From Candidatus Micrarchaeota archaeon (GTDB taxonomy: Archaea; Micrarchaeota; Micrarchaeia; Norongarragalinales; SBBD01): 11,146 bases of DNA. Positions 1,358 through 9,470 of this stretch are shown here, piece by piece. The DNA lies in assembly GCA_043813365.1 (NCBI GenBank), contig JBDRLB010000031.1, forward strand, positions 1-11,146, written 5' to 3'. How positions within the stretch are numbered: the stretch's first letter is position 1; every line of letters begins with the position of its first letter. Position numbers and translations under genes: made by a program. The notes beneath the pieces were generated by a model. It was not told the DNA's origin, made no database searches, and saw nothing but the letters and a program-made list of their open reading frames with translations.

Positions 1358-1577
1358 GCCCCGGTAGCTCAGCTGGTTAGAGCGGCTGACTGTTAATCAG
1401 CAGGCCGCAGGTTCGAAATGACTTGCCCCTTTCTTTTTAGAAAAAAGAAAGCGGCGGTGTCGCCGCTGGAAAGAAAAAATTGTCCTAATTCGCTAATCAT
1501 TAGCGCTTTCTTTGGCGGTGCCATACGCCTTTCTTTCTGGAAAGAAAGGCAAGGCAGCGAATATCCTGCCCGGGGCG
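1358..1577 (+). tRNA. tRNA-Asn(GTT), intron-containing; exons 1358-1417 and 1564-1577; CCA not encoded
   Basis: Acceptor stem GCCCCGG(1358-64)/CCGGGGC(1570-76), D stem GCTC/GAGC, anticodon stem GCTGA/TCAGC with CT-GTT-AA loop (GTT 1392-94), T stem GCAGG(1407-11)/CCTGC(1565-69). The spliced T loop is TTCGAA+T and the discriminator is G1577. A T-run follows. Confidence 0.95.
1418..1563 (+). other. 146-nt tRNA intron at non-canonical position 59/60 with relaxed BHB (BHL-like) splice motif
   Basis: Central 4-bp helix TTCG(1412-15)/CGAA(1558-61) with 3-nt bulges AA|A(1416-18) and TA|T(1562-64). The outer helix is the T stem. The intron helix is TGaCTTGCC(1419-27)/GGCAAGgCA(1548-56) with G1557 unpaired. 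Confidence 0.88.
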
Positions 1578-1578
1578 C

Positions 1579-1585
1579 TTTTTTT
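1579..1585 (+). terminator. Oligo-T archaeal terminator after the tRNA
   Basis: T7 run starting 2 nt after the discriminator base. Confidence 0.5.
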
Positions 1586-1617
1586 AATTGCTATTGCTTA
1601 AGGGTTTGGTGAGTATT

Positions 1618-2469
1618 GTGGATGAGAAGCTAATTGCAAAAGTAACTGAAGAGATGCTAAAAAGGGCCGTTACTGATTTGCCTAAGGATGTAGAGGTTGC
1701 TCTTGCGGAAGCTGAGAGGGAGGAATTGAAAGCAAGGCAGGAAGTCGCCTCCGAACAGCTCTCAATTATCAATAAGAACATCGGGATTGCGAGGAGGAAA
1801 TGCGCCGCTCTTTGCCAGGATACGGGAACGTTGAGCTTTTTTGTAAAGGGAAAAACATTGACGAAGGAAATTGAGGCGGGGATTATTGAAGGAGTGCAAA
1901 ATGCAACTAAAAATGTGCCGCTGCGGCCGAATTCCGTTGATCCGCTTTCACGTAAAAATTTGGGCAACATCCCTTTCATCCACCTCGAATTTTCCGATCA
2001 TGATTATTTGGAAATTTCCGTGATTCCCAAGGGAGCGGGATGCGAGAACATGGCCGCGCTGTTCATGCTAAGGCCGTCTGATGGGATGGAAGGGATAAGG
2101 AAGGCGATTTTGACGCATGTTGCGGAGAAGGCGAGGAATGCTTGCCCGCCGATTGTTTTGGGCGTTGGGATAGGAGGGACGCCGGAAGAGGCGATGAGAG
2201 CCGCAAAGGAGAATCACCTTAGGAAATTGACGGACAGGAACCCGGACAAGGAATTGGCGGAATTCGAGAAACGGCTGAAGGATGAAATCAACCAGCTGGG
2301 GATCGGAACGATGGGATTGGGCGGGATAAAAACTGCTTTGACGGTGAAAGTTAAGAAAATCCCCTGCCACACCGCAAGTTTGCCGGTTGCGCTGAACATA
2401 GAGTGCTGGGCGGACAGGAGGTTGACTGCGAGAATTTTTGAAAATGGGAATATTGAGTATTTGGAGTGA
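1618..2469 (+). CDS. Class I Fe-S fumarate hydratase / tartrate dehydratase family, alpha subunit
   Basis: CQDTG, PLRPNSVDP, KGAGCEN, ACPP, GVGIGGT, GLGG, CHTASLPVA and ECWA motifs, including the three cluster Cys. Start placed at GTG 1618 after GGTGAG (1608-13); GTG 1609 is an alternative. Confidence 0.92.
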   Translation: MDEKLIAKVTEEMLKRAVTDLPKDVEVALAEAEREELKARQEVASEQLSIINKNIGIARRKCAALCQDTGTLSFFVKGKTLTKEIEAGIIEGVQNATKNVPLRPNSVDPLSRKNLGNIPFIHLEFSDHDYLEISVIPKGAGCENMAALFMLRPSDGMEGIRKAILTHVAEKARNACPPIVLGVGIGGTPEEAMRAAKENHLRKLTDRNPDKELAEFEKRLKDEINQLGIGTMGLGGIKTALTVKVKKIPCHTASLPVALNIECWADRRLTARIFENGNIEYLE

Positions 2470-2477
2470 TAGCTTAG

Positions 2478-3041
2478 ATGAAAATTGAATTGAAAACGCC
2501 AATCACGAAGGAGCAGGTCCTGAAATTGAAGTTGAATGATATCGTCTACATAAGCGGAAAAATCTTCTCGATCAGGGATCAGGCGATGAAGAGAATATTG
2601 CAGGAGAAGGATACGCATCCGGAATTGGAGGATGCGGCAATCTACAATTGCGGGCCACTGGTGAGGAAAAAGGGAAACGGATGGGAGCTGATTTCAGCAG
2701 GGCCGACAACTAGCAGCAGAATGAATGATCTGGCTGTTGAATTTATTCCGAGATTCGGGGTAAGTGCGATAATTGGGAAGGGAGGGATGAGCCAGAAAGT
2801 GCTGGAGGCGATGAGGGGGAAATGCGTTTACCTTTCGGCGGTTGGGGGAAGCGGTGCGGTTTCGGCGGAGCAATTGAAAGTTATGGGGGTGGAATGGGAA
2901 GATTTGGGGATGCCGGAGGCATTCTGGAAATTGGAGGCGGAAAAGTTCGGCCCGCTTATTGTAAGCATGGACGCGGCAGGCAACAGCTTATATGAAAGGA
3001 ATATTTCGGAGGTAAGGGCGAATCTGGGAAAGCTGATTTGA
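2478..3041 (+). CDS. Class I Fe-S fumarate hydratase / tartrate dehydratase family, beta subunit
   Basis: RDQA, CGP, GPTTSSRM, IGKGGM, DLGMPEA and GPLIVSMD..GNSLY motifs; starts 8 nt after the alpha subunit. Confidence 0.93.
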   Translation: MKIELKTPITKEQVLKLKLNDIVYISGKIFSIRDQAMKRILQEKDTHPELEDAAIYNCGPLVRKKGNGWELISAGPTTSSRMNDLAVEFIPRFGVSAIIGKGGMSQKVLEAMRGKCVYLSAVGGSGAVSAEQLKVMGVEWEDLGMPEAFWKLEAEKFGPLIVSMDAAGNSLYERNISEVRANLGKLI

Positions 3042-4466: not shown

Positions 4467-6863
<2,397 letters not shown>

Positions 6864-8402: not shown

Positions 8403-9470
8403 CTAGACATTCCTCTCTATTAGGTAGTCGGCGAATTCCTTGAGCTGCTTCTTCGCGCCGGAATCCTTCAGGGAGGGGGAGAATTTGGCCCATCCGGATT
8501 TCACGAGCTCCCTTGCCTTTTCCTTCGAGTAGTCGATTGCATCCGTATCCGTGATTAGAGTGATGGCCTCCCTGATGTAGAACGAATCCTTCGTGTGGGA
8601 GTTGAGAATCTGGAGGAGGCGTTTTCCTTTGTCAGGGTCGAGCTTCCCGAGGGCGCGGAGAACCATGAGCGTGCGTTTCCCTTCCGAAATGTCGCCGCCA
8701 ATTTCCTTCCCATATGCCTGCGTGCCGATGAGGTTGAGGATGTCGTCCTGTATCTGGAAGGCGATGCCTATTGATTCGGCGAATTCGCCGGCGAGCTCCA
8801 TCTGGGCATTGGATGCTCCGCCGAACAATGCGCCCAGCTTGGCAGCCATCCTTGCAAGTGTTCCGGTTTTGAAGGCGCACATCTGCAGATAATCGTTCTC
8901 GGATATGTCAGCGAGCTTGCTGCGGTGCCAGAGGATGTCGAACCCCTGGCCGTAGGAGAGGTTGATCATCTCCTGCATGTAGATTTCGTATGCGGAAAGG
9001 AGGGTTTTGTCGGATAAAAGGTGCCGGTTATTCTGCAAAATTTTTAGGGGAAGGAAGTACATGGCATTGCCGGCATTGATTGCGATGTCCTCGCCGAAAA
9101 TTACATGAATTGCGGGCTTCCCCCTCCTCAGATCGCTGCTGTCTTCAACATCATCCACCATAAGGGTGCCGTTGTGGACAATTTCAGGGATGGCGGAGAG
9201 CTCCATGAGCTTTTTGGGGTTGGTACCGAACGCTTCTGCTATGAGAAGCAGCAAGGCGGGCCTCCAGCGCTTCCCGCCCCTTTCCAGCAGGGACCAGATG
9301 GGCTCGTGGATGGATTGCTCGGCTGCCTTGAGATCGAAAGAGTAGCGGGGCTTCCCGCAGATTTCCTCTAATTTCTTCGCATCCAGCTTCCGGGGTATGG
9401 TTTTCAGTATTTCCGCATCAACCAGCTTCTTGGTTTTCCGCAAATTGGTCTCTAGAGCCATTGTCATCAT
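8403..9470 (-). CDS. Trans-polyprenyl diphosphate synthase (GGPP synthase-like)
   Basis: GGKRWRP, FARM DDVED..RRG, GQG.D, KTG, SARM-like FQIQDDILN and GGDISEGK. The start is ambiguous among ATG 9470, 9467 and 9461. Confidence 0.93.
   Translation of the reverse strand: MMTMALETNLRKTKKLVDAEILKTIPRKLDAKKLEEICGKPRYSFDLKAAEQSIHEPIWSLLERGGKRWRPALLLLIAEAFGTNPKKLMELSAIPEIVHNGTLMVDDVEDSSDLRRGKPAIHVIFGEDIAINAGNAMYFLPLKILQNNRHLLSDKTLLSAYEIYMQEMINLSYGQGFDILWHRSKLADISENDYLQMCAFKTGTLARMAAKLGALFGGASNAQMELAGEFAESIGIAFQIQDDILNLIGTQAYGKEIGGDISEGKRTLMVLRALGKLDPDKGKRLLQILNSHTKDSFYIREAITLITDTDAIDYSKEKARELVKSGWAKFSPSLKDSGAKKQLKEFADYLIERNV

Follow-up and report, generated by a model that had tools for sequence, protein, structure and literature searches.

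Where does an intron come from that interrupts the T-loop of a tRNA gene and is laid out as two mirrored arms around a central hairpin? The question is raised by the tRNA-Asn(GTT) gene in a stretch of 11,146 nucleotides (the window; contig C31, GenBank JBDRLB010000031.1 of assembly GCA_043813365.1) from a Candidatus Micrarchaeota (DPANN) metagenome-assembled genome (MAG) of 1.34 Mb in 78 contigs, 88.6% complete and referred to below as G000. Five congeners (G001–G005) bring the genus set to six genomes. The initial annotation had suggested that the intron is a non-autonomous palindromic element, similar to a miniature inverted-repeat transposable element (MITE), which is tolerated in a spliced bulge-helix-bulge (BHB) intron. 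That suggestion is supported by copies elsewhere and by filled and empty orthologous sites: with a probability of roughly 0.8, the body of the intron is a dispersed, non-coding and apparently mobile hairpin repeat of this archaeal order, tolerated through BHB splicing.

The anatomy of the gene can be read directly. Exon 1 (1358–1417, forward strand) runs from the acceptor stem GCCCCGG through the GTT anticodon arm to GCAGG-TTCGAA, ending at T-loop position 59; the Rfam tRNA model matches it with 41.3 bits at 1363–1428, the 3' part of the tRNA being lost. Exon 2 (1564–1577, forward strand) reads T-CCTGC-CCGGGGC-G and comprises T60, the 3' strands of the T-stem and of the acceptor stem (pairing GCCCCGG/CCGGGGC) and the discriminator G. 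Between them lies a BHB intron of 146 nt at position 59/60 (1418–1563, forward strand), as judged from exon joining, the minimum free energy (MFE) fold and the structure ensemble. The limits of 1419–1556 given in the initial annotation are thereby corrected: removal of 1418–1563 leaves a 74-nt tRNA-Asn(GTT) in which the T-loop TTCGAAT is restored within a T-arm, GCAGG-TTCGAAT-CCTGC, identical to that of the intron-less orthologue in G005. A cut one base leftward (58/59) gives the same product, and the sequence alone fits both positions; since a BHB is cut after the second base of the bulge, the intron is placed at 59/60.

In the MFE fold, the central 4-bp helix is formed by UUCG of the T-loop (1412–1415, forward strand) with CGAA (1558–1561), at pair probabilities of 0.68–0.74. 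It is bordered by a 5' bulge AAA (1416–1418, forward strand), which carries the 5' splice site and faces the unpaired G1557, and by a 3' bulge UAU (1562–1564, forward strand) with the 3' splice site. Beyond the bulges lie the outer helix h', UG.CUUGCC (1419–1427) with GGCAAG.CA (1548–1556), and on the other side the T-stem GCAGG/CCTGC. Two 3-nt bulges on opposite strands, a 4-bp helix between them and flanking helices are all present, and the computed ensemble gives the pairs of the splice motif a probability of about 0.7. Since one unpaired G stands opposite the 5' bulge, the motif counts as slightly relaxed. By its anatomy, the predicted intron at 1418–1563 is a non-canonical archaeal BHB tRNA intron.

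Such an intron calls for a suitable enzyme. One open reading frame (ORF) of 388 aa on contig C73 of G000 contains two endonuclease domains and matches PDB 4fz2 over its full length (residues 12–388, E 2e-128). This structure is the epsilon2 EndA of ARMAN-2, described in the available text of its source as cutting strict and relaxed BHB motifs at non-canonical positions (PMC3488258). The genome therefore carries the gene of a predicted ARMAN-2-type (epsilon2) splicing endonuclease of broad specificity. The intron is probably spliced, because the gene is the only tRNA-Asn(GTT) gene found in G000 (with exon 1 as query, all 17 matches in the genome were inspected and yielded no other exon 1) and because its product equals the intron-less orthologue.

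The internal hairpins, mirror repeats and direct repeats listed in the initial annotation were all recovered. They comprise a left-arm hairpin of 14 nt (1425–1438/1442–1455, 93% complementary), a GC hairpin AGCGGCG/CGCCGCT (1450–1456/1461–1467), a centre hairpin CGCTAAT/ATTAGCG (1491–1505, forward strand, with strands 1491–1497/1499–1505), a right-arm hairpin of 11 nt (1527–1537/1540–1550, 100% complementary), arms that are 84% complementary to one another (1428–1446 and 1531–1549), and the direct repeats GGCGGTG (1453, 1514) and CTGGAAAGAAA (1466, 1537). The pre-tRNA (1358–1577) folds with −94.7 kcal/mol versus −69.8 ± 4.8 in 200 dinucleotide shuffles, none of which was as good (z −5.15). Of the two conformations that had been envisaged, the long rod is the one that the ensemble favours: the arms pair with each other at a probability of about 0.98, and the centre hairpin at 0.95–0.99 for five of its six computed pairs (0.56 for the innermost). 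Since the local arm hairpins reach a probability of only about 0.01, the multi-hairpin form lacks thermodynamic support, and so does the idea that the hairpin at 1527–1550 gates splicing.

The two arms of the rod are copies of one repeat unit. The left unit (1419–1477, forward strand; nhmmer E 5e-12) scores 68.3 bits at 1418–1477 with a covariance model (CM), R1, built from 20 units and giving rough E-values. It starts with TGACTTGCC (1419–1427), which is the 5' strand of h', and shares 98% identity with the left unit at C76:18477. The right unit is inverted (1504–1557, reverse strand; 59.6 bits with R1; nhmmer E 1e-10), and its GGCAAGGCA (1548–1556) forms the 3' strand of h'. A BLAST search of 1418–1563 against its own genome returned 29 matches, with near full-length relatives at C76:18476–18617 (84%), C40:97–232 (78%), C11:4976–5104 (69%) and on C26; one arm was taken as the repeat unit because most matches span only query positions 1–64 or 90–139. 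Aligned units share the consensus TGCCTTGCC, (CC)TTTCTTT, a loop, AAAGAAA(GG), GCG-RTGGC-NCCGC and AAAGAAA, and the inverted termini of the unit are TGCCTTGCC/GGCAAGGCA. Full-length elements, the tRNA-Asn intron among them, consist of a left unit, a centre hairpin (TTTGATTYGCAAATCAAA by eye) and an inverted right unit; the hairpin at 1491–1505 is akin, again by eye, to the TTTGATTYGCAAATCAAA centre of the full-length copies on C76, C40, C11, C26 and C72. The intron is a palindromic dimer, with its two units in inverted orientation around a centre hairpin, of a dispersed hairpin repeat of about 55 nt.

Related copies, which the idea of a selfish element had implied, are plentiful. Iterated nhmmer searches found 33 distinct units in G000 at 27 merged loci (28 with C11 split), and the CM gave 35 matches. 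At E up to 0.001, CM matches occur in 44 of the 67 genomes of the order, including all ten of the host's own family (G000 among them). Copy numbers in the genus range from 14 to 35 (35 in G000, 14–31 in the five congeners), and some genomes of other families also hold many copies (29 in G050, 26 in G030 and 16 in G023). Genomes with matches number 21/26 in family f11, 6/12 in f9, 4/6 in f7 and 0/7 in f2. Among 151 sampled genomes of the phylum, no match beyond the order scores more than 33 bits, versus 60–75 bits inside. Units do not group by genome: for 20 of 27 units of G000, another genome holds a match that is at least as good, and the best match in another family is 78–98% identical. The copies appear to move at the DNA level. 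A 425-nt contig from a sediment metagenome reproduces 1410–1478, that is the 5' part of the T-loop and the left unit, with zero differences, but departs from the window on either side of it; therefore an identical left arm exists in another context or organism.

The hairpin itself is kept across subtypes. Both sides have changed in 8 of 17 predicted pairs, and in 9 of 11 in a second analysis, part of these changes being register shifts between subtypes. In the pairing of the 5' terminus GCC with TGGC, A-U has taken over twice independently among 72 units, and G-U and a break are seen once each, so that covariation lends modest support to this predicted terminal pairing. Searched at E up to 1, Rfam returned tRNA matches only, and none for the unit. 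Some copies are more elaborate: at C42:33917–34019, C50:12273–12372 and C75:17955–18058, a two-hairpin module of about 50 nt is nested in the loop of hairpin 1. BLAST revealed no free-standing copy of the C50 module in G000. CM matches of about 100 nt also occur in G003, G004, G005, G008 and G053.

Is the unit a constant part of the tRNA-Asn gene? The exons are nearly identical in the six congeners, whereas the content of the 59/60 site differs. Five of the six genomes (G000–G004) carry an intron there: two inverted units in G000 and G004, one unit with a degenerate inverted arm in G003, a left unit with unrelated sequence in G001, and a 94-nt intron of a different repeat family in G002. G005 has no T-loop intron. 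In other genera, 24 loci were scanned, of which 16 contained tRNA-Asn(GTT) by pattern; the T-loop is uninterrupted in 15 of these 16 and carries an unrelated short insert in the last (G026). Two copies beside protein genes behave in the same way. The unit at C7:28151 is absent between the same two genes in all five congeners, the spacer measuring 13 nt in G002 and holding another repeat family at that spot in G004; the unit at C74:3837 is likewise absent from the orthologous spacer in 5/5 congeners. At all three sites, the pattern is one of discrete presence or absence rather than of gradual local duplication, which is how the initial annotation had proposed to recognize a mobile unit. A D-loop intron found in the tRNA-Asn of G004 (L037) and G005 (L075), and not in that of G000–G003, provides a further case of presence and absence in the genus.

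The family that occupies the 59/60 site of G002 (L039) is a second small repeat (ACACCTCYAGGGG..CCCCTACGCGTGT..). It has at least four copies in G000 (C72:12625–12678, C71:1680–1725, C53:11224–11276 and C57:2484–2529), the best being 94% identical over 54 nt. In G004 (L067), it lies after a protein gene and is flanked by a duplicated gene end.

Units are enriched in tRNA introns and at gene ends. Context was tallied by eye for 28 loci of G000; interrupted tRNAs were named by in-silico splicing with ARAGORN, which is too permissive for positions, so positions were assigned by eye. Twelve of the 28 loci are tRNA introns, nine in the T-loop (Asn, Arg-TCT, Val-GAC, Leu-GAG, Arg-GCG and Met, plus tRNAs on C76, on C26 and at C40:99) and three in the anticodon loop (Leu-TAA, Arg-CCT and Ala-TGC). 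Within the genome, these introns are closely alike in sequence across tRNA identities and positions, as in a shared intron family. Five copies lie up to about 100 nt 3' of tRNA genes (C2, C42:10313, C9, C11:5228 and C72). Eleven loci adjoin protein genes, and seven of them start 0–3 nt after the upstream stop codon, in the same orientation; six of the seven upstream ORFs have at least 90 aa, and the remaining one, on C44, was read by eye and is short and zinc-ribbon-like. Gene-end copies usually show a stop codon, two bases and GCCTTGCC, and the predicted endonuclease cut in tRNA genes likewise falls two bases before GCCTTGCC. Relatives are represented by 60 loci holding 64 units, drawn from 13 related genomes at the highest-scoring CM matches. 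By eye, 11 of these units adjoin a sense T-loop (GGTTCRAA../GCCTTGCC), 21 adjoin a 3' exon in antisense, 13 adjoin other parts of a tRNA body, and 19 are at protein genes, intergenic or unclear.

How might a tRNA gene tolerate such an insertion? The inverted termini TGCCTTGCC/GGCAAGGCA would supply the outer helix h', and the CGAA just inside the 3' end of the unit would pair with UUCG of the T-loop to give the 4-bp central helix. With both helices provided in this way, the epsilon2-type endonuclease of the genome, owing to its broad specificity, could excise the unit-bearing intron. A different origin of the central helix, duplication of a palindromic TTCGAA target, fits tRNA-Asn but was rejected because in tRNA-Arg(TCT) the 3' end of the intron, read by eye, complements a non-palindromic T-loop and does not repeat it.

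Traces of how copies arrive are found in their flanks. A scan of 27 loci of G000 against shuffled controls revealed direct duplicates on both sides of the unit at five loci (C42:10313, C47:11967, C74:3837, C75:17957 and C7:30918). They are 22–65 nt long and diverged, and none of 200 shuffles was as good; the other 22 loci, all 12 intron loci among them, showed none. With relatives included, duplicate lengths span 16–65 nt. At C42:10313, about 40 nt separate an intact tRNA-Gly(CCC) from the unit, behind which the 3' end of the tRNA occurs a second time; in G002 the same tRNA-Gly has a true 59/60 intron carrying the unit. The layout of intact tRNA, spacer, unit and orphan 3' exon recurs in G007, G029 and G002. 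Duplicates at protein genes encode the same peptide with synonymous differences. At C47:11967, 19 codons contain 17 nucleotide differences and no amino-acid change; four loci of G000 together show 27 synonymous versus 3 non-synonymous codon differences in 50 codons, and the second-family locus of G004 adds 5 versus 0 in 11 codons, for a total of 32 versus 3 in 61. Both copies may thus once have been functional gene ends in different lineages, the unit having come with the neighbour's gene end. The orphan copy downstream in the G004 locus agrees with the close relative G003, and at C74 the spacer after the orphan copy is common to G004, which makes the gene-attached copy plus unit look like the newcomer. 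One locus has the duplicate at a gene start: at C75:17955–18140, where a nested unit sits, a duplication covers the first seven codons (MVEMKQR), the two copies having five synonymous differences, and the reading frame of the upstream copy continues across the unit as far as a stop.

Two readings of these duplicates remain, namely site-specific integration with a replacement gene end and the repair of a break in the palindrome from a diverged homologous template. The route favoured here, though with low confidence, is that copies arrive when DNA of related lineages recombines in homologous register, perhaps following breakage at the palindrome. A broader proposal, put forward here tentatively, is that palindromic units are vehicles of archaeal BHB intron gain, as mobile DNA passed between related lineages by such homologous-register recombination. 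A spliceable intron would arise where the termini land beside a loop that pairs with the inner end of the element, the self-complementary T-loop TTCGAA being one such loop. The layouts of intact tRNA, unit and orphan 3' exon, and of gene end, unit and orphan gene end, would then represent frozen intermediates. A more daring variant takes the excised intron itself to be what moves, because the 5' boundary at gene ends (after the stop codon, two bases before GCCTTGCC) coincides with the cut site in tRNAs.

The alternative that survives best, though still unlikely, treats the units as remnants, or as cis-mobilizable parts, of integrative elements that a site-specific recombinase inserts into the 3' ends of tRNA and protein genes. 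The element would carry a replacement gene end, and an intron would arise as the first copy of the 3' exon decays. Direct duplicates of target 3' ends flanking some copies (the tRNA-Gly at C42:10313 and the 22–65-nt pieces at the other four loci), the recurrent orphan 3' exons in G007, G029 and G002, the 32 versus 3 codon differences in 61 codons and the G003-like orphan copy in G004 all fit this scheme, and the available part of a study of Caldiarchaeum subterraneum proposes an integration route for tRNA disruption (PMC3293823). However, only 60–150 nt lie between the duplicates, with no adjoining integrase gene, and G000 as a whole gave a single tyrosine-recombinase match. The duplicates vary in length from 16 to 65 nt and flank 0/12 intron loci, and two gapped patterns of the unit had no match on IMG/VR viral contigs, which speaks against a viral carrier. 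A casposon-derived element was rejected as well: Cas1 is found in 0/6 genus genomes, and casposon target duplications measure 14–15 bp, as opposed to the 16–65 nt seen here.

It is distinctly improbable that the unit is instead a selected functional RNA or DNA module under purifying selection, whether it acts in pre-tRNAs and at mRNA 3' ends as a hairpin for processing or protein binding, or whether the intron is a stable circular non-coding RNA. The conservation between families of up to 98%, the compensatory changes that maintain the hairpin, and the tight association with tRNA genes together with the exact position after stop codons would be explained by such a function; an RNA contig assembled from public reads, in which a T-loop is followed by unit-like sequence, also points weakly in this direction. 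Yet the unit is dispensable at every orthologous site that was checked. It is missing from the tRNA-Asn of G005 and of 15/16 genomes from other genera, an unrelated element occupies the same site in G002, two gene-end copies are missing in 5/5 congeners, and 0/7 genomes of family f2 have a match. No Rfam family recognizes it at E up to 1.

Bacterial repetitive extragenic palindromic (REP) doublets, or REPINs, with their RAYT transposases are inverted doublets of a short palindromic unit, located at gene ends and present in tens of copies per genome. The unit shares this doublet layout, the gene-end sites and the copy range. Mobilization in trans by a single-copy HUH Y1 (RAYT- or IS200-like) transposase might be suggested by the inverted doublet of hairpins and by the presence in G000 of exactly one Y1_Tnp gene (C8:179–523, 95.7 bits), but is highly improbable. 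That gene, IS200-like and of 143 aa by eye with an HVHVV motif, lies at a contig start (C8:1–700) between GC-rich hairpins that are its own and unrelated to the unit, and no unit occurs on that stretch. Y1_Tnp is found in only 18/67 genomes of the order and 2/6 of the genus, without relation to unit counts. It is lacking in the unit-rich G004 (31 units) and G005 (19), as well as in G002 (18 units; 7 contigs, 91% complete) and G023 (16 units; 9 contigs, 93% complete), and is present in 2/7 genomes of family f2, which have 0 units. No constant target tetranucleotide was seen, and IS605 TnpB had no match in G000. The units differ from REPINs, moreover, in serving as tRNA introns. Finally, the idea that an old private intron acquired its mirrored layout through duplication and inversion of its own sequence, to which the internal direct and inverted repeats alone might point, is refuted by the dozens of copies in this and other genomes, by the differing contents of orthologous introns and by the absence of the intron from G005.

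Several points weigh against a mobile repeat tolerated through splicing. The source genome is a MAG, 88.6% complete; context tallies were made by eye, and the copies in relatives are the best-scoring ones and not a random sample. No public sequencing run contains the locus, and none gave RNA support for splicing or for a circular intron: the best share of sampled window words was 0.17, with coverage almost only of the tRNA exon and no spliced joint, and one RNA contig matched exon 1 of a G002-type tRNA-Asn plus its upstream flank. The units are extremely conserved between families (up to 98%, f1 versus f11), which fits a selected function too. The flank scan of 27 loci revealed no short target duplication of fixed length, and checks for Y1, TnpB, Cas1 and tyrosine recombinases found no mobilizing enzyme, other transposase families not having been searched.

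How far the comparison with MITEs holds can be judged from these results. Prokaryotic MITEs, such as the SM elements of Sulfolobus, are small non-coding elements that occur in many copies; they have inverted termini and a strong hairpin, and are present in some relatives and absent from others. The unit shares these traits; in being short, non-coding, dispersed in many copies and bounded by inverted termini, it justifies the term MITE-like, whereas a fixed-length short target duplication was not found, nor, in the checks for Y1, TnpB and Cas1, an autonomous partner with the same ends. It also differs from MITEs in strongly favouring tRNA loops and the base that follows a stop codon.

Closer parallels exist among archaeal tRNA introns. 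The 'transposed' BHB introns of Thermoproteales (Fujishima et al. 2010, as summarized in PMC4090602; bioRxiv 10.64898/2026.10.13.758758) are, in the summaries available, near-identical introns in different tRNAs, in canonical as well as non-canonical positions and in a lineage with a broad-specificity endonuclease; they likewise imply spread at the DNA level by a mechanism given as unknown. By contrast, the host described here is a DPANN archaeon (Micrarchaeota) with an epsilon2 endonuclease, and its introns are built from a modular hairpin unit of about 55 nt that occurs singly, as inverted dimers or nested. Units also follow stop codons and lie 3' of tRNA genes, whereas the Thermoproteales summaries mention no intergenic copies, and some copies here have duplicated target ends. 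Ca. Micrarchaeum acidiphilum (ARMAN-2) belongs to the same phylum and has an EndA that is similar over its full length, as well as non-canonical relaxed-BHB introns; the part of that work available concerns the enzyme and single substrates, unlike the family of intron and intergenic repeats described here (PMC3488258). The integration model for Caldiarchaeum subterraneum, as far as the accessible text sets it out, resembles the present case in that duplicated tRNA gene fragments border the mobile DNA that was inserted, with the gain of an intron, but the insert there is 1.8 kb long with a recombinase gene, compared with 60–150 nt and no gene here (PMC3293823).

Judging from these partly available sources, intron families shared among tRNAs (Thermoproteales), and non-canonical introns with the epsilon2 enzyme (ARMAN-2) are already known, and the integration route has been proposed. 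No description was found of a hairpin repeat that is both a tRNA intron module and a gene-end element in DPANN, the original of Fujishima et al. (2010) lying outside the literature covered. Two sources, one of them on Asgard archaea, describe in their accessible parts the route of arrival of archaeal tRNA introns as an open question (PMC4090602; bioRxiv 10.64898/2026.10.13.758758). The unit offers a handle on it, as three states of the element can be observed: some dozen tRNA genes hold it as an intron, other copies lie beside tRNA genes with an orphan 3' exon, and others again stand at the ends of protein genes, where the duplicated ends carry the synonymous changes of another lineage. Together with the filled and empty sites among six congeners, these states make the arrival route testable by comparative genomics and simple biochemistry.

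An A/T-rich box, TTTATAAATATAA, at 1320–1340 of the window, some 25–30 nt upstream of the tRNA start, is likely a TATA-type promoter, and the T-run CTTTTTTT directly 3' of the tRNA (1578–1586, forward strand) is, by its sequence, a likely transcription stop. Neighbouring genes (1588–3041; 4467–6845 and 8403–9470, both on the reverse strand) are ordinary, with fumarate hydratase alpha and beta subunits, a CDC48-type AAA ATPase and a polyprenyl synthetase in the vicinity. Standard tRNA finders miss intron-bearing genes of this kind: ARAGORN reported 0 tRNAs in the window, overlooking tRNA-Asn, and 10 tRNA genes in the whole of G000, for which the Rfam tRNA model gave 18 matches above its cut-off. 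At least one of the ten is an artefact, a tRNA-Leu on C2 with a supposed intron of 1253 nt that joins unrelated pieces. Interruptions at non-canonical positions, often more than one per gene, seem to affect the majority of tRNA genes in this genome, as on C65, C76, C59 and C42.

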